From a virus (lineage: Duplodnaviria; Caudoviricetes), in IMG/VR virus record IMGVR_UViG_3300042922_001044, positions 1 to 45,367 of that record: 45,367 bases of DNA. One strand, 5' to 3'. The number at the start of each line of letters is the position of its first letter. The first letter of the stretch is position 1. The notes beneath the pieces were generated by a model. That model did not search any database. It was not told the origin of the DNA and saw nothing but the letters and a program-made list of their open reading frames with translations. The translations under genes and the position numbers were made by a program. This document shows, piece by piece, positions 1,472-45,230 of this stretch.

Positions 1472-1711
1472 TTACTTCCTTAACTCTGCTCTACATATCT
1501 TGCAGATATTCTTACCTTTATGAGCTGTTACTTTATCTGCTTGTCCACAAAACACACAGGCTGGTTCGTATTTTCTGAGGATAATGTTTGCACCATCTAC
1601 AAAAATTTCCATGCCATCCTTTATCTCAATGTTCAGGGTTCTTCTGAGCTCTATTGGTATTACTACCCTTCCGAGCTCATCAACCTTTCTAACTATGCCG
1701 GTACTCTTCAT
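1472..1711 (-). CDS. abrB: AbrB-family transition-state regulator
   Basis: MKSTGIVRKVDELGRVVIPIELRRTL is the AbrB N-terminus; C-terminal CxxC...CxxC as in clostridial AbrB. Confidence 0.93.
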   Translation of the reverse strand: MKSTGIVRKVDELGRVVIPIELRRTLNIEIKDGMEIFVDGANIILRKYEPACVFCGQADKVTAHKGKNICKICRAELRK

Positions 1712-3589: not shown

Positions 3590-4936
3590 ATGTTTAAACA
3601 ACAAATGAAGGGATTCTTATGTGGAATCATCGTAACAGTTCTATTGTTTTCAATGGTTTTTGCAGCTCCGGTAACAAAAACACTTAAAGTAGTAATGAAC
3701 AATATAAATATGCAGATAAACGGAAAAGCTGTAAAGTCAGATATTATTGTCTATAACGATATTCCTTATGCTCCTATTAAGACAGTTTCAGAAGCATTAG
3801 GGAAACAATTTACATGGGATGTAAAAACATATGCTGTAACAATTAAAGACAAGGCCATGGCTCCTGTTCCTAAGCCTGCTCCTGCGCCAGTTCCTAAGCC
3901 AATAGATAAAATCAGTTCTAGATCAAATCCAGCTAATATTAACGAGACTATCTTTGTAACTACAAGCACATATGATAAAACAGTATTTGAGTCCGCAATA
4001 ACAATATTAGAAATAATTAGAGGAAATAGCGCATGGGAAACTATATATAACAGAAATAAATATAATGAACCTGCACCAGATGGATATGAATATATTCTTG
4101 CTAAGATTAAGGTAAAGCTTAACAAGTCTTCTGTTAAAGATCTTCAATTTCAAGTAAGCGATTATGATTTTACACTGGTATCTAGTACAGGTGTGGATTA
4201 TGAGAGAAAATCTGTTGTTGTACCAAGTCCTGAATTAAATGCTAAATTATATGAAGGTGGAGAGTCCGAGGGATGGGTAGTATTTACAGTTAAAACTACT
4301 GATAAATATCCTTTAATAGCATTTGGAAGAGATTATAGTGGAAAAGGCGGGGTCTGGTATAGGGCATATAACCCCGATACTCCAACTCAAAACCAAACAA
4401 CGACTATAAATCCAATTGTAGATACTTCTAATACAACTATTTTAAACCCGAGCAAATCACAAACGCCTTTAACAACATATGATGACTTGAAGAACTTTTT
4501 AAATAATAACTACGCTACTCTTGAAACTGTTATTGGAAAGACAAATTTCACCTTTGAAATAACTGAAAATACAAAATCTTTTGAGCCCTCTGATTATTGG
4601 ATTCGAGTCAAATATGACTACAATTTCTTTGGTGGCGCTATGTCGAACATCAAATATACTGACGAACAAAAAAACTTACTAAGACAACAACTCAAAGGGC
4701 ACCAAGAGTCATTAGCTAGAGCCGTAATAGCTGCTATGCCAACTAAAAAGTTCTATGGTGGTTATTATGATTCATGGTATAAATACCCAACCCTAAAGGT
4801 TGATTTACAAACACGTTATTATTATAGCTGGACTAATTATGATCAGCCTGACATGAGCGGTGATATTAACCAGATTTACAACAAAGCTAAACCTTCTCAA
4901 TTCCGTTGGTATAGCCTAATAGATAATACTTTATAG
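3590..4936 (+). CDS. Secreted/surface protein (signal peptide, copper-amine-oxidase-like N-terminal domain, DUF4352-like Ig-fold domain)
   Basis: Signal peptide ending SMVFA; YNDIPYAPIKTVSEALGKQFTWD; Pro-rich linker; LYEGGESEGWVVF. Confidence 0.75.
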   Translation: MFKQQMKGFLCGIIVTVLLFSMVFAAPVTKTLKVVMNNINMQINGKAVKSDIIVYNDIPYAPIKTVSEALGKQFTWDVKTYAVTIKDKAMAPVPKPAPAPVPKPIDKISSRSNPANINETIFVTTSTYDKTVFESAITILEIIRGNSAWETIYNRNKYNEPAPDGYEYILAKIKVKLNKSSVKDLQFQVSDYDFTLVSSTGVDYERKSVVVPSPELNAKLYEGGESEGWVVFTVKTTDKYPLIAFGRDYSGKGGVWYRAYNPDTPTQNQTTTINPIVDTSNTTILNPSKSQTPLTTYDDLKNFLNNNYATLETVIGKTNFTFEITENTKSFEPSDYWIRVKYDYNFFGGAMSNIKYTDEQKNLLRQQLKGHQESLARAVIAAMPTKKFYGGYYDSWYKYPTLKVDLQTRYYYSWTNYDQPDMSGDINQIYNKAKPSQFRWYSLIDNTL

Positions 4937-5354: not shown

Positions 5355-6392
5355 ATGTTTATTATAAGATTGCCAAATGGTCATGGAACTGTATATAAAC
5401 TCTCCGGCAAAAGAAGAAAACCTTGGATAGCTAGAATAACAACTGGATGGGATGCAGAAGGAAAACAATTGTTTCAGACTATAGGATATTTTAAAGAAAA
5501 AACAGAGGCATTGGATGCGCTAACCCTTCATCGAGTAAACCCAGTGTCACCAAAATCAAATATAACACTCAAAGAGCTATACGATGAATGGTCAATTGCT
5601 AAATATGAATATATATCAAAGTCAACCGTTGATGGCTATAAGGCTGCCTGGAAGTATTTATCTAAATTTGAAAACGCAAAATTCAAAGAACTTCGCACTT
5701 CTCATATACAATCAGTAATAGATGGTTATTATAAATCCAAGATGAGTAGATCCTCGTTGGAAAAAATAAAAGCTGTTGCTACAATGCTTTATAGCTATGC
5801 TCTAGAAAATGATATTGTAAATAAGAGTTATGCAGAATTCTTAAGGCTTCCTAAATCTGAGAAAGAAGAAAAAGAAATATTTACAGATTTAGAAATTCAG
5901 AAGATAGAAAAGAATGTCGGTGAAGTAGAATGGTTAGATACAGTGCTTATATTAATTTATAGCGGTATGAGAATATCAGAGCTTTTAGAGCTTACTAAGT
6001 TTAGCCTTGATATGGATAAGCAGCTCATCACTGGCGGCGTAAAAACTGATGCCGGTAAAAATAGAGTTATTCCTATTCATCCGAAGATATTCCCACTTAT
6101 AAAGAAGTGGTATGATAAAAATGGCGAGAGGCTTATATGCACTGATGAAGGCAAGAGCCTCTCTGTCGACTATTTTAGGAGAAAGAAGTATTATATCGCT
6201 CTTGAGAAAATTGGAGTGCGAAAACTAAGCCCACACGCATGCAGGCATACTTTTGCAAGCTTGATGGCCAAAGCAGGTGTGGATACTCTTTATATTCAGA
6301 AAATTATAGGACACGAAGATTATGCTACAACTGCTAACCTTTATACTCATACTGATGTTGATGAACTGAAAAAAGCAATTGGTAAAATATAG
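5355..6392 (+). CDS. int: Tyrosine integrase
   Basis: RLPNGHGTVYKLSGKRRKPW arm-binding N-terminus; SGMRISE, KT, HACRH, IGH and LYTH catalytic motifs. Confidence 0.96.
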   Translation: MFIIRLPNGHGTVYKLSGKRRKPWIARITTGWDAEGKQLFQTIGYFKEKTEALDALTLHRVNPVSPKSNITLKELYDEWSIAKYEYISKSTVDGYKAAWKYLSKFENAKFKELRTSHIQSVIDGYYKSKMSRSSLEKIKAVATMLYSYALENDIVNKSYAEFLRLPKSEKEEKEIFTDLEIQKIEKNVGEVEWLDTVLILIYSGMRISELLELTKFSLDMDKQLITGGVKTDAGKNRVIPIHPKIFPLIKKWYDKNGERLICTDEGKSLSVDYFRRKKYYIALEKIGVRKLSPHACRHTFASLMAKAGVDTLYIQKIIGHEDYATTANLYTHTDVDELKKAIGKI

Positions 6393-6468: not shown

Positions 6469-6517
6469 TTGAATGGGGTTCAAGAGGTCGCAGGTTCAAA
6501 TCCTGTTACCCAGACCA
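6469..6517 (+). other. attP core: 3' half of tRNA-Pro(GGG)
   Basis: TTGA-ATGGGGT-TCAAG anticodon arm, GCAGGTTCAAATCCTGT T-arm, ends ACCA; no D-arm or 5' half; directly downstream of int. Confidence 0.9.
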
Positions 6518-6654: not shown

Positions 6655-8973
6655 TTATACAGGCTTTGGTAATTTACTTATGAATTTTGCATATCCCTTT
6701 TGATACTTAATAAGGTTAAGAGAAGTAAACCTTTTGAGATTCAGTAAATCTTCAACCTCATATGGTTTCAATTCATCTTCAAGTTCTTTATATATTGCCT
6801 TATCTGCTCCATGAAGTAGCATATATGAACTATTCCCACTTTTGAGTTCTTCCTTCAGTGTACCAATCTGATTTAAGTAATGGCAGCTGAATACATACTT
6901 ATTTCCAAACTTGCGCACCTGGTTAATTGTTTCCTTAATGAGCCTTGCTGCAGTCGGAGCTTGATATAGTTCATCAATAATCTCATGGCAGCGTGTGGGT
7001 TGATTATGCATAGATCCTCTTATCTTGGTGGCTAAAATAATCTTACTGCAGAAGTAAGTAACTAACACGTTTTTTACCATCTTACTGCCAAAAGTATCTT
7101 CGGGCATCTTTATAAGTATAACCTTTCCTTGCTCCATGCCTCTAACAAAGTCAATATTACTACCACAGCTCTTGCTGTACATGTACTTTAAATATATATT
7201 TTCCCTTATAAGATTAATACGGTCCAATATCCCATCAATCTTACTATCTCTCGTTCCGGTTAATTCTGATAAAACTTCCTTTGTATTAGGATCCTTTTCC
7301 AAGGTATATTCATTAAGCTCTTCTAGCGCTCCTATTTCTTCATCCAGCAGGCTCCTCATTGACTCTGGTATTGCTTTAATATACTCTTGCCTCCTTCTAT
7401 AGTCCTGCAGGCACATTATTGCAGATTTTATATTAATGTCAAATAGAAATGCCACATTGCATGCAGCAGATAAATATCTGCGCATTTTTGAAGTGAGTGG
7501 AAGTCCTTCATTATTGATACTATCAACTAAAGCTAGCGTCTGCTCAGCCATGAGGTTTGCGGCTTTAAGTCTTTCAAAATCACTTTTATTGGTGTGTTTT
7601 ATCTCATTATAGCCGAGGCCTTGAAGTTGTTCTTCGTTGGAGCAATCTATAATAATGAGATCTTCCTTTGAAACTACCTTCTCAATATCATCTGACAGTT
7701 CGCAATTTTTTATAAAATCAATAACTATTACAGCCTCTTTGCGCATCCTAGCATACTTTACATAGTTGGCAATGTAAGTAGTCTTCCCACACCCAGGTGG
7801 GCCCACAATCGTCAACGGTAGATTCCCAAGGTTGTATTCGTCCGGCAGGTAAGAAGGGTATTCTTTGCCCTTAAATGTGGCATCTCCAAGGTATATATAC
7901 CCTTTACTTATTTCCTCAGGGATTGGAGATTCAAGCACATCTACTTTTTCAATATTAGAGTGCTGTTGTAATAATGTCCTGCCCGGTATTTGAATTAAGT
8001 TAGAAGCTTCTTCTGTGCTAATAATGTTAGTGGATACACCTTTGATTTTGAAGTCTTCTATATTATATACACACTTAACCGCCCTGTAAGAAAGGCTATT
8101 ATCCTCTGACAAAGTTTTATAACTTTCACATACAGCTATAGCATTATTCTTAGCTCTTATTTCACTTTGGCTCTCGCTGATCACCAACATCTGCGAATCT
8201 AAAATATTTCTATCTGACTTTCTCAATGTTGTAGCAGAAAGCATTTTAAACAGCTGCATACCTGGACCTTCATCCTTACGACCTTCAGTTATATTTTTGC
8301 CATCTCCTATGAAATTGGCCATTTCTTCAAAAGTCATAATGAATATCTTCATAATTTCATCTATTAGATACATCATCATATAGCCAAAATTAAGCTTTTG
8401 CTTATCAATAGGACTATTCTTTTTTATCTTCTCCATGGTGTCACGGTGTTTATTGTACCAGGAGGATTGATTAGTCGGCATAAAGTTATATAAAACCCCT
8501 ACCCGGTCATCCTGCTCCATAATATCAATTATATTAAGTATGCTATTTAGCGGCTCATTGCTCTTTTTATCTACCTTAAGACTCAGGGCATCCTCTTTAC
8601 GATATACCAATTCATGCTTCACAGCTTTGCTAGAGAACATTGGAACCAATGCAACTCTCTGTATTGTAGCTTTTGGCCAAGTATTACTGCACTTTTCTAA
8701 TATCAACTTTTCAAACTCTTCCGGAGTTATTATATAAAAACATACATCTTTTAAGCTTATATCAATAAAGAACGCTGTTTTATTTGGCAGCCGGTAAGTC
8801 AGCTGATGGCTTTTAAACTTTAGTCTATCAATAGGTTGGTCATACATATTACAGATAACCCTTGCAATATTTTCGCTATCATAGTTTCTTATGGAGGTAT
8901 CAGGGATTATCTTTAGTATGCTGTACTTTGGATTATAGATTTTGAAGAATTCGCTTGCCTTCATCCATTTCAT
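6655..8973 (-). CDS. VirD4/TrwB-HerA-FtsK superfamily P-loop ATPase (772 aa)
   Basis: Walker A GPPGCGKTT, VIVIDF strand, Walker B EIIDELYQ, and QVRKFG...SCHYLNQI (equivalent to the xRKyG...xQ motif of coupling proteins and HerA). Confidence 0.8.
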   Translation of the reverse strand: MKWMKASEFFKIYNPKYSILKIIPDTSIRNYDSENIARVICNMYDQPIDRLKFKSHQLTYRLPNKTAFFIDISLKDVCFYIITPEEFEKLILEKCSNTWPKATIQRVALVPMFSSKAVKHELVYRKEDALSLKVDKKSNEPLNSILNIIDIMEQDDRVGVLYNFMPTNQSSWYNKHRDTMEKIKKNSPIDKQKLNFGYMMMYLIDEIMKIFIMTFEEMANFIGDGKNITEGRKDEGPGMQLFKMLSATTLRKSDRNILDSQMLVISESQSEIRAKNNAIAVCESYKTLSEDNSLSYRAVKCVYNIEDFKIKGVSTNIISTEEASNLIQIPGRTLLQQHSNIEKVDVLESPIPEEISKGYIYLGDATFKGKEYPSYLPDEYNLGNLPLTIVGPPGCGKTTYIANYVKYARMRKEAVIVIDFIKNCELSDDIEKVVSKEDLIIIDCSNEEQLQGLGYNEIKHTNKSDFERLKAANLMAEQTLALVDSINNEGLPLTSKMRRYLSAACNVAFLFDINIKSAIMCLQDYRRRQEYIKAIPESMRSLLDEEIGALEELNEYTLEKDPNTKEVLSELTGTRDSKIDGILDRINLIRENIYLKYMYSKSCGSNIDFVRGMEQGKVILIKMPEDTFGSKMVKNVLVTYFCSKIILATKIRGSMHNQPTRCHEIIDELYQAPTAARLIKETINQVRKFGNKYVFSCHYLNQIGTLKEELKSGNSSYMLLHGADKAIYKELEDELKPYEVEDLLNLKRFTSLNLIKYQKGYAKFISKLPKPV

Positions 8974-8974
8974 A

Positions 8975-9247
8975 CTACATCACCTTATTGAATATCATGA
9001 TTGTCAGATACACGAAGAACGCCATCTGAGCATATAACCTAGCCTTTTTTACCCCTAAAAGGTAAACAACCAAGCTGATACAGAATATCGATAAGCAAAC
9101 ATAGAAACTAAGATTAACTGCAGTATCCCATAACCAGAGCAACAGCTCCTTTGGATGAGTAATATAATGAAAGAATGTCTTAATAATTGTGAAGTACTCC
9201 TGTGTAGATTCATTGAACCTTTTTAGATTATCTAACATATCCCACAT
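8975..9247 (-). CDS. Small integral membrane protein (two C-terminal TM helices)
   Basis: Hydrophobic helices; ends 1 nt before the ATPase start. Confidence 0.75.
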   Translation of the reverse strand: MWDMLDNLKRFNESTQEYFTIIKTFFHYITHPKELLLWLWDTAVNLSFYVCLSIFCISLVVYLLGVKKARLYAQMAFFVYLTIMIFNKVM

Positions 9248-9255
9248 ACCTACAC

Positions 9256-9537
9256 CTACTTCCCAAAAGTTTTATCAATCATTACGAATACATTTGGCAC
9301 CACGTAACTAGCAATATAGGTGAGCACACAGGTTATTACAAGTTTCTTACCCTTATCATCATGTTTAAGCATTTGTAAATATAGGCCATAGATACTGGAG
9401 AATATCCCTACCCAAAATAAACCTTTTCTAAAAGCTGTGAGAAGCTTCCAGAAGTCATCATCTTCACTGGCAGCACTTACAGTTGTGGTTAATATTAATA
9501 TAGCAATTAGTAAGAATACTAATAGTTTTTTATACAT
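9256..9537 (-). CDS. Pilin-like (TrbC/VirB2-like) membrane protein
   Basis: Signal peptide ending VSA, then two hydrophobic helices separated by a charged loop (KHDDKGKK); RBS AAGGAGG. Confidence 0.55.
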   Translation of the reverse strand: MYKKLLVFLLIAILILTTTVSAASEDDDFWKLLTAFRKGLFWVGIFSSIYGLYLQMLKHDDKGKKLVITCVLTYIASYVVPNVFVMIDKTFGK

Positions 9538-9563
9538 AAAAACCCTCCTTTTTGTAAATAATA
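9534..9563 (+). promoter_or_regulatory. Sigma-F/G-like promoter overlapping the RBS of the pilin-like gene
   Basis: ACATA, 15 nt, GTAAATAATA vs sigma-F GYATA-N15-GGnnAnAHTR; also fits sigma-G spacing. Confidence 0.4.
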
Positions 9564-9579
9564 TAAACGAGGTGATATT

Positions 9580-9657
9580 ATGGGATTTGTAATATTTGGC
9601 GGTTGCTGTTTAGCAGCTTCAGGCGTGCTTTATCTTTTAGAAATGACTTATCGTTAG
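9580..9657 (+). CDS. 25-aa hydrophobic peptide, missed by the ORF track
   Basis: RBS GAGGTG; MGFVIFGGCCLAASGVLYLLEMTYR. Confidence 0.55.
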   Translation: MGFVIFGGCCLAASGVLYLLEMTYR

Positions 9658-9675
9658 ATTATTTCATGTGTACTG

Positions 9676-9704
9676 GCATAATTTGAAAATTTCAATCATA
9701 CGCT
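9676..9704 (+). promoter_or_regulatory. Sigma-E-like promoter, antisense to parR/parM
   Basis: GCATAAT, 14 nt, CATACGCT; the spacer holds the palindrome TTGAAA-A-TTTCAA. Confidence 0.5.
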
Positions 9705-9765
9705 ATATTGCGTAGCGCAAACGGGCTTGCACGTTGGAGCTGCAGTATACGCGGCTATGGCCACA

Positions 9766-9963
9766 CTATATGCTTTCAAGAATGTCAATAATTTCCTCAC
9801 TCTTTACCTCAGTTACAGCTGGGGTAATATTTATTTTTTGGTCTTTGTGCTTAAGGTAGAACTTCAAAGCATCTTTCATAAAATTGCTTTTATCTCCCTG
9901 CTCTGCTACTACTTTGAATAGATCCTTTTCTTTTTCCTTGAAGCTGACTAATACCTTTGCCAT
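9766..9963 (-). CDS. parR: ParR-like ribbon-helix-helix adaptor
   Basis: N-terminal beta-strand VLVSF, then SNFMKDALKFYL helix and an acidic tail; overlaps the end of parM. Confidence 0.7.
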   Translation of the reverse strand: MAKVLVSFKEKEKDLFKVVAEQGDKSNFMKDALKFYLKHKDQKINITPAVTEVKSEEIIDILESI

Positions 9964-10838
9964 AAGCTCACTCCTATCTTTTTAAAACCTAGTGCATTTG
10001 CAAACTGTGCATTTGGTATTATAGAAGTTCCTGGTATGCGCTTATCAAATAAAGATTTCAGCACATAGGCACCACCGCCTATTAAGGTAACTTTAGCTGT
10101 CTTTACTGGATATTTTAGTAGCAGTTCTTTCATGATTTTATCTGTATGTTCTTCTATGATATTTTTTATAAACCCTATTTCCTGCTTCTCTCCATAAATA
10201 CTAAGTCCGTTCTTAAGGATCCTCTCGCCGTCCTCAATCTCAAATAGGGTTTCATATTTTGAATTGATAGCTGAAACTATTTTAGAGAATAAAGTGAGAG
10301 TGCCTTCATATATGGTTGAGTGTTGGGTAACTTTCCTTTTGCCGTTAAACACCTGCAGTAAGGCAATAATAACTGTACGACCTCCTATATCGATGTAAAT
10401 TCTATCCTCAGTATCATCTATGGTATCAAGTGAGTAGTGAGCTCCGAGGCACTGTGGAAATACCTCTGCTTTAGTAATACCAATTGCTCTCTTTTGTTTA
10501 TTCACCTCAAACTCAACATATCTGTTATTCAAAAGCATTTGTTTCATCTGGTCCTTTTGGGAGTTAAAAAGTCCTAAAGGTAAGCCTGCAACAACTTGAA
10601 AATCATTCTGATTACTCGATTTTGATAAAGCTTCCAATAGACATACCCTTGTAAGTTCTTTATTTATTCTGTTTAAATCAACTTCAACATTACCTTCTCC
10701 CACTATATAAGCCTTATTATCAAGAATCAACATATTGCCTTCCCCTAAAATGGTTTCATGTGTGCTAATTTTAGAAGGAAATACAATCCCCTCAGATGTC
10801 TTTGTGTAACCGTATCCTAGGTCTACTCCGATGATCAT
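9948..10838 (-). CDS. parM: ParM/StbA actin-like ATPase
   Basis: GVDLGYGYTK, AGLP, VFPQC, IDIGGRT, LIGGGA and QFANALG actin-fold motifs. Confidence 0.92.
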   Translation of the reverse strand: MIIGVDLGYGYTKTSEGIVFPSKISTHETILGEGNMLILDNKAYIVGEGNVEVDLNRINKELTRVCLLEALSKSSNQNDFQVVAGLPLGLFNSQKDQMKQMLLNNRYVEFEVNKQKRAIGITKAEVFPQCLGAHYSLDTIDDTEDRIYIDIGGRTVIIALLQVFNGKRKVTQHSTIYEGTLTLFSKIVSAINSKYETLFEIEDGERILKNGLSIYGEKQEIGFIKNIIEEHTDKIMKELLLKYPVKTAKVTLIGGGAYVLKSLFDKRIPGTSIIPNAQFANALGFKKIGVSLWQRY

Positions 10839-10857
10839 ATATACTTTTACCTCCTTT

Positions 10858-10971
10858 TATATATTTGTTTATACTCTTCATTTTGTATTAGGTGATATTT
10901 GTATATATTTATTATTAGTTTTATATATTTATGCATGTCCTTTAACAAAAAGTTAATCATCTTTAACGAAA
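10858..10971. repeat. Candidate parC-like iterons and operator upstream of parM
   Basis: ATATTT(G/A)T four times in 10858-10932; CTTTAAC(A/G)AAA at 10940 and 10961; palindrome TTAAC-AAAAA-GTTAA. Confidence 0.4.
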
Positions 10972-10980
10972 TATTCCAAT

Positions 10981-11006
10981 AAAAAAGATGGTTATTCAAC
11001 CATCTT
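10981..11006 (-). terminator. Terminator after the HTH gene
   Basis: AAGATGGTT-GAAT-AACCATCTT-TTTT. Confidence 0.7.
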
Positions 11007-11198
11007 ATAAAATATCTCTTCAAACTTCCTATTAGTTTTTTCTAATATTAGCATTATAGCATCAAGTTCAGGCTGTAGCTTATTATTCTCCCATCTATTA
11101 TAATGGCTCCTATCGACTCCTAGGAACTCGGCAAACAAAGTTTGATTCTTATATCCCATTTGAAGTCTTATATCAAGCAGCCTATTTCTAACCCCCAC
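10992..11198 (-). CDS. XRE-family HTH regulator heading the ParM/ATPase cassette
   Basis: NQTLFAEFLGVDRSHYNRWENNKLQP; GTG start, RBS GAGGTG. Confidence 0.88.
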   Translation of the reverse strand: MGVRNRLLDIRLQMGYKNQTLFAEFLGVDRSHYNRWENNKLQPELDAIMLILEKTNRKFEEIFYKMVE

Positions 11199-11242: not shown

Positions 11243-11926
11243 TTAAAATTTACTTATTTTGCCTTTGAATTTATCTTTAAATATTGTTTTACAGTTTGGA
11301 TATTGATTGCATGCCATGAATTCTCCGTATACTGATTCTTTTAGAACCATTTTACCTGTGCAATTAGGACATTTGCCAAACAACTCTATCCCAAACCTAT
11401 CCATAAAGTAATTTCTGTATATCTCTTCAATCCGATCTGCAATACTCTCGGCAGCTTCGTTTGAAATCAAGTCATCTTGAAGTAACATCTCAATTGCAAA
11501 GTCATAACCCAGTTTATCCTCGACTACCCAGTGCCACGTATCTCTTACAATATCATTGTCTGTTAGTGTCTTTCTTTCAAGTGCTGTATTGCTCTCAAGT
11601 ATAGCCTTACTTTCGGGTATTATTTGGCTATTGGGCTGCTCATTCACGTTATTCTCACTAACTAACGACCATTGGTATGAACCGCAATTGGGAATAATCC
11701 GTTCTTCCCTCCACCGCTTATCATAGCTAAAGTGATCATTTTTCTTTCCATTATACATCGGGTAGCCATAAACATTGCCGTAAGGATATTTAACGACTTC
11801 TACCTTCTCCACAACTACACAATATTCCGCACTCCAGTTATCTCGACTAGCCTTAAATGGGACTTTGCAATCGTTCTCTTCCCATAATTGGATTAGATTC
11901 TTGCTCACTTTCATCTTCCCTTCCAT
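11243..11926 (-). CDS. Moron protein with a C-terminal topoisomerase-type C4 zinc ribbon
   Basis: CPNCTGKMVLKESVYGEFMACNQYPNCK; true start may be 11914 or 11908. Confidence 0.7.
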   Translation of the reverse strand: MEGKMKVSKNLIQLWEENDCKVPFKASRDNWSAEYCVVVEKVEVVKYPYGNVYGYPMYNGKKNDHFSYDKRWREERIIPNCGSYQWSLVSENNVNEQPNSQIIPESKAILESNTALERKTLTDNDIVRDTWHWVVEDKLGYDFAIEMLLQDDLISNEAAESIADRIEEIYRNYFMDRFGIELFGKCPNCTGKMVLKESVYGEFMACNQYPNCKTIFKDKFKGKISKF

Positions 11927-11944
11927 TGATATTATATGATGATA

Positions 11945-11971
11945 TTTCTATACAAATTGTGGAAATCCTTT
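11945..11971 (-). promoter_or_regulatory. Sigma-H-like promoter
   Basis: AAAGGATTT, 11 nt, ATAGAAA. Confidence 0.6.
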
Positions 11972-12013
11972 ATTTCAATCCGGTTGGGGAAGAGTACTGG
12001 TATTGGCGTCTCT

Positions 12014-12295
12014 TTAACCTACTTTAAGCATATGCCATTTACACGATTGCTGATCATACTGCAGCTTAAAAGTTACTAATATATCCTCAATTATTGATTG
12101 ACAATTAAATGTATAAGCTTTATTCTGGTTACCATTCATTGTACCAAATGTATTTTTGAAATCTTGATCAATAACCTTATCGACCTTGATAACATGAACT
12201 CCTTCTTCATCTTCAAACTTTATTCTATTAGGTCTAATACCGCCTTTTGGATCAAACGTAGCTATGCACTCAACAAGATATTTTTCTCCGGCCAT
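12014..12295 (-). CDS. SOS-regulated small protein (93 aa)
   Basis: Start moved to ATG 12295 (RBS GGAGGG); VECIATFDPKGGIRPNRIKFE...KW; LexA box in its promoter. Confidence 0.7.
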   Translation of the reverse strand: MAGEKYLVECIATFDPKGGIRPNRIKFEDEEGVHVIKVDKVIDQDFKNTFGTMNGNQNKAYTFNCQSIIEDILVTFKLQYDQQSCKWHMLKVG

Positions 12296-12322
12296 GCTAT
12301 CCCTCCACACACATTTTAATAC

Positions 12323-12342
12323 ATTATACCAAACATGTGTTC
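12323..12342 (-). promoter_or_regulatory. LexA box plus extended -10
   Basis: GAACACATGTTT immediately before TGgTATAAT on the minus strand. Confidence 0.8.
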
Positions 12343-12362
12343 TATTTAAAACTGCAAAAAAT

Positions 12363-12387
12363 AAAAAAGCAGCTCTAAAGCTGCTCA
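12363..12387 (-). terminator. Terminator
   Basis: GAGCAGC-tttaga-GCTGCTT followed by a T-run. Confidence 0.7.
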
Positions 12388-12391
12388 AATA

Positions 12392-12742
12392 CTAATTTGC
12401 AAATGTTGTATTTTTTACTTTCCATTTTTCAAGTGCTATTCCTAGCCAAAAACTATATATCCCGAAAGTTATAATTGTTAACAAGAACCATTTAATCCAA
12501 TTGCCGAAAAGCCCTATAGCTGAGCCTGTAAACTTTAGCCTCTTACCGTCTATAACTGTATGATTAGTTTTCCATCCATATACCATGCAAAGAGCCCATG
12601 GATAACAAATCCCAAGTGTAAAAACTGTAACTAAATAACCTAGTATTGACCACCCAATCAATTGAAGAAGTCCTCCATCAAAATATGATCTTTCTACGGA
12701 TGCAACTGTTGCAGTCTGAACATTAATATTAACCTCTGTCAT
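12392..12742 (-). CDS. DUF898 (YjgN-like) membrane protein
   Basis: SYFDGGLLQLIGW...TLGICYPWA...DGKRLKFTG...ITFGIYSFW; start moved to 12742 (RBS GGGAGG). Confidence 0.85.
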   Translation of the reverse strand: MTEVNINVQTATVASVERSYFDGGLLQLIGWSILGYLVTVFTLGICYPWALCMVYGWKTNHTVIDGKRLKFTGSAIGLFGNWIKWFLLTIITFGIYSFWLGIALEKWKVKNTTFAN

Positions 12743-12777
12743 ACAAAATCCTCCCATGTCATGTATTTTATAGTATA

Positions 12778-12804
12778 TTTCTACAAATAATTCCAATACC
12801 CTTT
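12778..12804 (-). promoter_or_regulatory. Sigma-H-like promoter
   Basis: AAAGGGTAT, 11 nt, GTAGAAA. Confidence 0.5.
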
Positions 12805-44060: not shown

Positions 44061-44370
44061 TCACCAAAACCCCTTCCTGCTTAATCTCTTTTTCATAAAA
44101 ATATATATCCATTAACTTTTTGCTGGCATATACCATTTCTAGCTTAGCGCCTTTACTATTTATCCAATCTGGAAGAAACACAATCGCTTCACAGGCATCT
44201 ATCATTGCATAGCATATTGGCATATATATCTCCCATGGAAATCCCTCAGGCAATATTGCTGGTGACATTACCAAGTGTCCTTCCTTTTCTAGCTCTTTCT
44301 GTGCTTCCTCAAATTTCTTCTTGTAATTTGGATCTCCGGTAATCTTACCCGCTATGTACGTCTTTTTCAT
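44038..44370 (-). CDS. DUF4406 (nucleoside deoxyribosyltransferase-like) protein
   Basis: YIAGKITG...SPA...MIDACEAIVFLPDWINSKGAKLE. Confidence 0.88.
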   Translation of the reverse strand: MKKTYIAGKITGDPNYKKKFEEAQKELEKEGHLVMSPAILPEGFPWEIYMPICYAMIDACEAIVFLPDWINSKGAKLEMVYASKKLMDIYFYEKEIKQEGVLVSDGTKTD

Positions 44371-45230
44371 TCCCGCTTCCTCCTCTTATTATTTTCATTA
44401 GCTTCATTTGCTCTCATCCTTGCATACAGATACGCACCAGAGACATAATCGCTATACTTCACATTTATGTCATTGAATTTATAGCCTTTATATATTTTTT
44501 CAAATATTGCTGCTGCATCATTTTCATTCTTTGCAATCTTTTCTGCCTGCCTCTTCGTTATCTTGTGATCTGCTATTGTTATTTTGGGTTCCTGTAAATT
44601 TCTACTAGCACACCATCGCTTTGTACCTTTTGGGTCCTTGGTTATGTACCTTGCAAGTCCCTCTAATCCGAATTCATTTGGTTGAAGGCGGCGAGCATTT
44701 GCGTACCCCTTCCCCCAAAGTTTTTCAGCTACATCCCTATCTATTGAATTCATCAACATATGATGGTGAACTCTCTTCTTCTTTCCATCTGTATCAAACT
44801 CAATGACATACATGTACTTCAGTTCAGGTAATCCATTTTTTCGACGATGCTCTCTAACTCTGCGTATATAATTTTGTATATCCTTTCTTGCTTGCTCCTC
44901 ATCCGGAGGAGATCCTTTATAGGTAAGGTCAATTGTTAAATCTTCATCTGTGAAATTAGTATTTATTTTTCTGATAATATTTTTCTTGGCATTTTTATCA
45001 TTAAGGTTCTTTTGTACCTTACGAGATTCTGTTTCTTTTTTTGCCCTGGATGCTTCACTTCTGTTTTTCCATAATGGATAAATTTCACTTTCAAGCATCT
45101 TTCCAGATTTAATTGTTTTGACTCTATATATAAAAACATCCTTACTTTTTAAACTCTCAAATTTTTCCTCTTCACTATCTTCAAACGATTTATCAAAAAT
45201 ATCTAAATATGATTCACTGCTAAACGGCAT
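44367..45230 (-). CDS. rep: HUH-family rolling-circle replication initiator
   Basis: Motif I LTIDLTY, motif II RVHHHMLM, motif III LARYITK. Confidence 0.8.
   Translation of the reverse strand: MPFSSESYLDIFDKSFEDSEEEKFESLKSKDVFIYRVKTIKSGKMLESEIYPLWKNRSEASRAKKETESRKVQKNLNDKNAKKNIIRKINTNFTDEDLTIDLTYKGSPPDEEQARKDIQNYIRRVREHRRKNGLPELKYMYVIEFDTDGKKKRVHHHMLMNSIDRDVAEKLWGKGYANARRLQPNEFGLEGLARYITKDPKGTKRWCASRNLQEPKITIADHKITKRQAEKIAKNENDAAAIFEKIYKGYKFNDINVKYSDYVSGAYLYARMRANEANENNKRRKRE

Follow-up and report, generated by a model that had tools for sequence, protein, structure and literature searches.

We analyzed a 45,367-nucleotide stretch of viral DNA (IMG/VR record IMGVR_UViG_3300042922_001044; hereafter the window), which is the genome of a temperate tailed phage with lambda-type terminase, portal and capsid genes and an integrase. 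A scaffold in a 'Clostridia bacterium' bin matches the window at 99.5% identity over 14.4 kb. A first-pass annotation had pointed to six co-oriented genes at 6655-11198 as an undescribed machine that moves phage DNA, and all six open reading frames (ORFs) are present there on the minus strand (Table 1). They hold a module of the type IV secretion kind that is real and widespread, that has been noticed in part before and that has no known function. The core of the module is a ribbon-helix-helix (RHH) protein, a pilin-like protein, a small membrane protein and an ATPase with a VirB4/TrwB fold. Besides the six genes, the locus carries a divergent hydrophobic ORF of 25 amino acids (aa), sporulation-type promoters and a conserved hairpin element. 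In this paper we establish the gene content of the module, the fold of its ATPase, its host range and an enrichment of promoter motifs, and the promoter architecture together with the host range points to sporulation.

On one side the cassette ends at the 3' half of a tRNA-like sequence, located between the integrase and ATPase genes, which is the likely attP next to which the first-pass annotation had placed it. ARAGORN found no whole tRNA at 6475-6517, and the same tRNA-like junction is seen at locus L043. The ATPase gene lies within 1.2 kb of a contig end in 18/36 viral loci, and so the cassette is usually found at a prophage end. On the other side, the XRE helix-turn-helix (HTH) gene, which had been counted as a member, adjoins the cassette but is probably not part of the unit, because it has its own terminator-like hairpin before the ParM gene (10985-11006) and is replaced by a different gene in the closest relative, L007.

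Table 1. Features of the cassette and its borders in the window.
Feature	Position	Strand	Remarks
ATPase, 772 aa, PHROG 5156	6655..8973	-	DUF8128-like N-terminal half; VirB4/TrwB/HerA-type motor with all-alpha domain
Small membrane protein, 90 aa, VirB3 position	8975..9247	-	
VirB2/TrbC pilin-like protein, 93 aa	9256..9537	-	Leader and helical hairpin
Forespore sigmaF-type promoter motif, antisense to operon	9534..9562	+	One mismatch in -35 box
Divergent 25-aa hydrophobic ORF with ribosome-binding site	9580..9657	+	
Conserved non-coding element	9676..9837	+	SigmaE/K-type promoter motif 9676-9704, hairpin, terminator 9804-9837
Ribbon-helix-helix-like protein, 65 aa	9766..9963	-	PHROG 18533
ParM-like actin, 296 aa	9948..10838	-	Pfam ALP_N, E 2e-23
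Three 9-bp direct repeats upstream of ParM	10858, 10902, 10922	-	Candidate parC/operator; putative function
SigmaE/K-type sense promoter candidate, degenerate	about 10926-10958	-	Below strict sense patterns
XRE HTH, 68 aa	10992..11198	-	Adjacent; probably outside unit
Tyrosine integrase	5355..6392	+	Context
Likely attP core: tRNA-like sequence, 3' half	6475..6517	+	Read from sequence

The ATPase matches PHROG 5156 over its full length (E 6e-104), and 311 clusters at 50% identity, some of which are fragments, reach E 1e-30. Its homologues include SPP1 gp32 (24% identity over 93% of the query, E 7e-26), SPO1 gp27.4 and genes of CP-51 and SP10. G396 and K397 of Walker A, D667 and E668 of Walker B, Q685 and K688 are invariant in 56/56 aligned homologues and R687 is kept in 54/56, so the Walker A/B and RK motifs that were read as intact in the window are conserved in the family. 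The AlphaFold model is confident (pLDDT 88), and the best fold match of its C-terminal half is the C-terminal domain of Thermoanaerobacter VirB4 (Z 27.9, rmsd 3.4, 336 aligned), followed by DndH-C (Z 26.3), TrwB (24.2), HerA (23.5) and the Legionella coupling complex (23.1). Foldseek ranked chains of the R388 type IV secretion system (T4SS)/TrwK first. For the N-terminal half the similarity is to DUF8128 (feature score 0.94, TM 0.72), and the ATPase profile found no significant match among the sequences of solved structures. No hydrophobic segment or N-terminal membrane anchor was found in the 772 aa, and therefore the ATPase is built like VirB4 and not like a classical VirD4; of the earlier description as VirD4/HerA-like, the fold is retained and the VirD4-type anchor is not. 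In phage phiCp-D (L002:5959-8374) the ATPase is annotated as two ORFs, and Bacillus phage G has two adjacent genes, gp155 and gp156, which are both structural relatives of the ATPase in the fold search.

With such a fold, one option is a HerA-type anti-phage defence system carried by the prophage. HerA chains are indeed among the fold matches, PADLOC assigns mad8 to the motor domain (E 8e-12), and a position on the att side is typical of accessory genes. However, the neighbours of the ATPase are membrane, RHH and ParM genes with no conserved nuclease or Sir2 partner beside it; a pairing with nucleases, as in defence HerA proteins, had been named as an argument against a transfer machine. The exception is a GmrSD gene behind the ATPase in one relative, MMB025. 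The DUF8128-like N-terminal half, the small membrane proteins as partners and the presence of the module in lytic phages also speak against defence, which we regard as extremely unlikely.

With the pilin first, then the VirB3-like protein and the ATPase, the genes are arranged as in virB2-virB3-virB4. In the 93-aa protein a signal-peptide-like first helix is followed by the hairpin, and an iterated profile ties its family to SPO1 gp29.1, CP-51 gp97, 0305phi8-36 gp204 and a plasmid protein. The plasmid homologue (pCLK) is above the Pfam TrbC cut-off and matches the family profile (probability 65%, E 6e-5); the SPO1, CP-51 and 0305phi8-36 proteins match T4SS_pilin below the cut-off. For the protein of the window itself there was no Pfam pilin match, Foldseek with its model gave no match under E 0.001, the Atlas matches were all under 0.9, and the CedA1 pilus came at rank 5 (Z 7.4, rmsd 3.2, 72 aligned), a place that it shares with unrelated helices. 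The pilin shape that had been seen in this protein thus holds for the leader and the hairpin, whilst the pilin fold is only weakly indicated. For the 90-aa family a Pfam TraL (VirB3) match lies below the cut-off (E 0.014, 2/28 members), and the 90-aa protein matches the 93-aa family by profile (probability 78%), so it could be a second pilin-like hairpin.

Upstream of these genes are the parts of a ParMRC system, an actin-like ATPase and an RHH adaptor gene. The RHH-like protein may act as a ParR-like adaptor, an autoregulator or both, and its homologue is also found at loci without ParM. A co-oriented upstream ParM is present in 16/38 loci with enough flank, and a divergent one in 4 more. The ParM-ParR pair of the first-pass annotation therefore consists of real genes, of which ParM is optional. 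A use ascribed to such genes in phage genome papers is the maintenance of a plasmid-prophage in vegetative cells by partition and membrane anchoring, for which the ParM-RHH pair with its upstream repeats and the plasmid-like state of many carrier prophages can be taken as indications. ParM, RHH, Replic_Relax, TrbC and FtsK-like genes were read as plasmid maintenance genes in PMC7685451 and PMC9658697, the latter on an FtsK-annotated cassette that may differ from ours. Yet, the module is intact in the lytic phages SPO1 and SPP1, its core persists without ParM, and there is no excess of sigmaA motifs ahead of the first gene (2/22 clostridial loci and 2.7 in shuffles) whilst sporulation motifs are enriched. 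Such maintenance is therefore very unlikely as the function of the module.

The host range was read from the names of the phage and plasmid records that carry relatives of the module. The ATPase matches 129 of 50,697 phage records, which are named after Bacillus (118), Geobacillus (2), Lysinibacillus (2), a deep-sea thermophilic phage (D6E; 2), Clostridium, Terrisporobacter, Brevibacillus and Alicyclobacillus (1 each) and 'Microcystis' (1). The 'Microcystis' phage has an 80-kb genome, as in the Bacillus Slash/Stahl phages, and its ATPase is 50% identical to that of Basilisk. All 56 plasmid matches are from Clostridium, Bacillus, Alicyclobacillus or Thermoactinomyces, and two further queries gave the same genera. 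None of the names of the 129 phage records is Staphylococcus, Streptococcus, Listeria or Lactococcus. The integrase of the window, used as a control, matches 1029 records, including Streptococcus (291), Staphylococcus (61), Lactobacillus (23), Listeria (18) and Lactococcus (14), and therefore such phages are in the collection and can be reached. Judging by the names, nearly all carriers are thus phages or plasmids of spore-forming bacteria, a restriction that the first-pass annotation had suggested looking for. Among them are SPP1, SPO1, SP82G, SP10, CP-51 and Tsamsa, to which structural similarity adds phage G. In 401 genomes from the phylum of a clostridial relative there were 3 strong and 3 weak matches, and a single-protein search of genome contigs gave 16 loci, close relatives only.

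Detailed comparisons were made on part of the match rows and on 20 annotated regions picked by hand. Dereplication of the upstream DNA reduced 72 loci with a gene in the pilin position to 43, of which one has no ATPase call. Among the other 42 the pilin profile is found in 36, the RHH gene in 33 and the 90-aa family in 27, so the genes occur together widely. Replic_Relax, a relaxase-like gene that we take to be related to MOB-C relaxases, is present in 5/36 loci and every time together with ParM. The earlier statement that there is no relaxase is right for the window cassette, where none lies beside the ATPase, and not for these relatives. No ORF with the size and hydrophobicity of a VirB6 channel or of VirB8 was found in the cassette, beyond which part of the genome was scanned. 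Tsamsa and MMB025 have an M23 peptidase within the cassette. In SPO1 an opposite-strand operon holds the pilin-like 29.1, ParM 27.9, 27.8-27.5, the ATPase 27.4 and Replic_Relax 27.3, and CP-51 has the same arrangement. In SP10 (L069:2316-3183) the cassette is immediately preceded by genes for a phage sigma factor and its accessory protein. Large clostridial plasmids typed as non-mobilizable (L005:6600-9400) carry the pilin-ATPase pair with RHH and ParM not nearby. A motif of ~9 bases upstream of the pilin or ParM gene is common to SPO1, CP-51, SP10, 0305phi8-36 and the clade of the window (L067:1933-2379, L068:2015-2491, the upstream regions of L069 and L070, and about 9665-9680 in the window).

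In the interval from the pilin start to the RHH gene, 27/43 loci have a divergent hydrophobic ORF of 12-27 aa with a ribosome-binding site; it is found in most clostridial and several Bacillus loci. A sigmaF pattern was modelled on mapped forespore SigF promoters of C. difficile (PMC7438776). Pointing antisense from the pilin start, ahead of the divergent ORF and on its strand, it is perfect in 11/43 dereplicated loci, as compared with 0.23 (maximum 2) in 100 dinucleotide shuffles, and with up to one mismatch it occurs in 23/43 loci (4.6 in shuffles, maximum 9). Windows of other genes contain the perfect motif in 3/345 cases. All 11 loci with a perfect motif have the divergent ORF. A perfect sigmaG motif is found in 3 more loci and in 0/345 windows of other genes.

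On the sense strand the operon has mother-cell-type motifs ahead of it: a sigmaK pattern is present in 7/22 clostridial loci (0.6 in shuffles, maximum 3; 0 antisense), and a sigmaE pattern in 5/15 upstream windows from 14 Bacillus-type loci (0.3 in shuffles, maximum 2). These sigmaE motifs, including that of SPP1 gp31, are at a near-constant distance. Their pattern was relaxed by one letter after the sequences had been viewed, and on the clostridial loci it gives 4/22, with a shuffle maximum of 4. A second sense pattern, also composed after viewing the sequences, gives 9/22 as compared with 0.4 in shuffles and 3/192 in other genes. In the 22 clostridial loci the region before the first gene shows no enrichment of the sigmaA, sigmaH, sigmaF, sigmaG and simple sigmaE patterns. 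Predicted sporulation sigma consensus motifs are thus enriched over chance at the level of the family, with one mismatch in the window.

A second antisense motif, of the sigmaE/K type, is found in 17/28 clostridial loci (0.8 in shuffles; 0 sense). Its -10 box extends into a hairpin with covarying base pairs, which is followed by a terminator, and because the stem takes in bases of the -10 box the hairpin would form in single-stranded DNA or in read-through RNA. Copies of this conserved element are located at 9676-9837 (+) in the window, L023:6012-6130 and L001:3664-3775, and the same element lies upstream of SPP1 gp31. In the window the hairpin is weak, since the element folds no better than shuffles, and Rfam has no match. 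CS-6-like (single-strand-origin-like) words are present in 10/21 copies and the inner stem covaries. An outer stem of the ssoA type was rejected, as the pairing of the -35 region (4.7) does not exceed that in shuffles (4.8). RNA contigs of L053 (three unstranded runs, a weak hint) cover the element and the small ORF and leave the ATPase mostly uncovered; their ends at 4783, 4805 and 4814 fall inside the predicted terminator. The element may be a small RNA, a 3' untranslated region, an origin of transfer or a single-strand origin.

One possible reading of these data is that the machine is timed to sporulation and has another cargo, secreting a protein or breaching the forespore and so sabotaging or redirecting sporulation for the phage. 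The promoter and host evidence applies to it equally, the relaxase is missing in most loci, some versions have an M23 peptidase and in SP10 the cassette follows a sigma factor. VirB4-type ATPases, moreover, serve protein traffic and pilus assembly. On the other hand, the DNA-moving ParM/RHH pair is tied to the module and lies inside the operon in SPO1 and CP-51, all 5 Replic_Relax loci also have ParM, and no conserved effector gene was seen. We therefore consider a protein cargo unlikely, although it deserves attention.

Another option, left beside forespore entry by the first-pass annotation, is a virion-independent, conjugation-like transfer of phage DNA to neighbour cells in stationary phase. 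The pilin-VirB3-VirB4 order, the relaxase-like gene and the wall hydrolase are all conjugation parts, the module is also found on large clostridial plasmids, and the single-strand-origin-like words of the hairpin element would fit as well. However, transfer to neighbours leaves both the forespore- and mother-cell-type promoters and the absence from phages of non-sporulating Bacillota unexplained, and VirB6 and VirB8 are missing from the cassette. Of the two destinations the promoters favour the forespore, and the neighbour cell is quite unlikely.

The best reading, in our judgment somewhat more probable than not, is a transfer of phage DNA into the forespore after septation. All of the DNA-transport steps are what we infer from the parts. 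SigmaE/K would switch on the operon in the mother cell, where phage DNA that is not integrated would be moved to the pole by ParM and the RHH adaptor. The two small proteins would keep the ATPase at the engulfing membrane, and it would then drive the DNA across the double membrane, and in large phages the relaxase-like protein and the M23 wall hydrolase may help its passage. In the forespore, sigmaF/G would fire the antisense gene of the 25-aa peptide, which may be a recipient-side partner, an entry-exclusion signal or a silencer of the operon. After septation an infecting or excised genome would be left in a mother cell that is doomed to lyse, and crossing two membranes would be its way into the spore; the payoff would be a phage that survives in the spore although the infected mother cell lyses. 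A mother-cell pump with a forespore peptide on the opposite strand fits a two-compartment device of donor and recipient. This stricter version, an intracellular conjugation in which a sigmaE/K donor pumps the genome across the septal membranes and the sigmaF/G peptide is the recipient-side partner or exclusion signal, is tentative, and we put it just short of an even chance.

Several observations weigh against transfer into the forespore. Once integrated, a prophage enters the spore as part of the chromosome and would have no need of a machine, and the host restriction could come in part from shared gene pools. A co-oriented ParM is missing from 22/38 loci and Replic_Relax from 31/36, the window included. 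No VirB6-like channel was seen in the cassette, whilst the archaeal Ced/Ted systems have one (PMC9905601). The pilin call is weak, with a TrbC match in only 1/32 members of the 93-aa family (E 0.035), and the family profile has no match to SPP1 gp31.1. As for the promoters, the motifs were first spotted by eye in many of the loci that were later counted, the window departs from the sigmaF motif at one position and none of the strict patterns fits its sense promoter. SPO1 and CP-51 have 2 and 3 mismatches to the sigmaE pattern and no divergent ORF. Among 9 Bacillus loci fetched later the perfect sigmaF motif is found in 0/9, with a one-mismatch sigmaF or sigmaG motif in 4/9 and the divergent ORF in 4/9.

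Parts of the module have been noticed before. In SPP1, gp31.1, gp31.2 and gp32 were proposed in 2018 as a trans-membrane translocon of unassigned role (PMC6316719), so the core cannot be called undescribed, as it first had been; the sporulation wiring is the new part. SPP1 gp31-gp31.1-gp31.2-gp32 shares with the window a homologous ATPase and, equally ordered, the genes for the RHH protein and two small membrane proteins, but has no adjoining ParM. Its genes 31.2 and 32 are non-essential, and the genes were treated as early and of unknown role in a main text in which the word 'sporulation' is absent (PMC6316719). SPO1 29.1 and 27.9-27.3 and CP-51 gp97-gp90 likewise have the pilin-like gene, ParM, small membrane genes and ATPase in one operon, but these are lytic myoviruses with Replic_Relax added, ParM between pilin and ATPase and no divergent peptide. 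ParM 27.9 of SPO1 was named as a possible entrapment aid, with no mention of the ATPase and the pilin in the accessible text (PMC12991052).

With the conjugative T4SS core of VirB2-VirB3-VirB4 and TrwB/VirD4 the module shares the gene order, the motor fold and the pilin-like leader and hairpin, whilst it differs in having no visible VirB6/VirB8, one ATPase, a DUF8128-like N-terminal half, a phage carrier and sporulation-type promoters. Archaeal Ced/Ted likewise lack a relaxase and combine a VirB4/HerA-like ATPase with two small membrane proteins that form hairpins (PMC9905601). They are chromosomal, import DNA between cells and have the multi-pass VirB6-like CedA/TedA (PMC9905601), a type of gene that is not present in the window cassette. 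ParMRC/AlfA-type partition, such as that by the actin-type AlfA of pLS32, has the actin and RHH adaptor in common with the module, and the parS/Spo0A entrapment of phi29 has the goal of reaching the forespore. Unlike the module, both position DNA before or at septation and have no membrane pump. Spo0A-box and Par-assisted entrapment are described in PMC12991052. In the literature searched, from which subscription papers were mostly absent, no paper connects the ATPase module with the sigma factors of sporulation or with transfer into the forespore.

Some other genes of the window can also be mentioned. The interval from lysin to cassette (11243-12796, minus strand) has variable accessory genes for a zinc-ribbon protein, a 124-aa protein common to L007-L009 and L034, and a DUF898-like membrane protein. 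Between repressor and integrase (3590-4936, plus strand) there is a 448-aa exported protein with copper amine oxidase N-terminal and DUF4352 domains, the gene of which contains a canonical Spo0A box at 4641; phage D6E has a DUF4352 gene ahead of its cassette. A 79-aa protein (1472-1711, minus strand) is, judging from its N-terminus, presumably a transition-state regulator of the AbrB/SpoVT family. At 44367-45230 (minus strand) this tailed phage encodes a Rep protein of the ORF2/G2P type (Pfam PF23343, E 1e-12), which could carry out the nicking for which SPO1-type cassettes would use Replic_Relax.

That phage genomes become trapped in endospores has long been observed, and for the mechanism Spo0A boxes or Par-like elements are named as no more than possibilities; SPO1 is among the phages that form virospores (PMC12991052). 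For two model phages of B. subtilis the module points to particular non-essential genes, 27.4 of SPO1 and 32 of SPP1, and transfer into the forespore predicts both a timing, after septation, and a compartment. If it is true, intracellular conjugation would be the active mechanism by which SPO1-like lytic phages become trapped in spores. Parts of conjugation would then have a new use, and the phages and plasmids of spore formers a route of persistence and spread.

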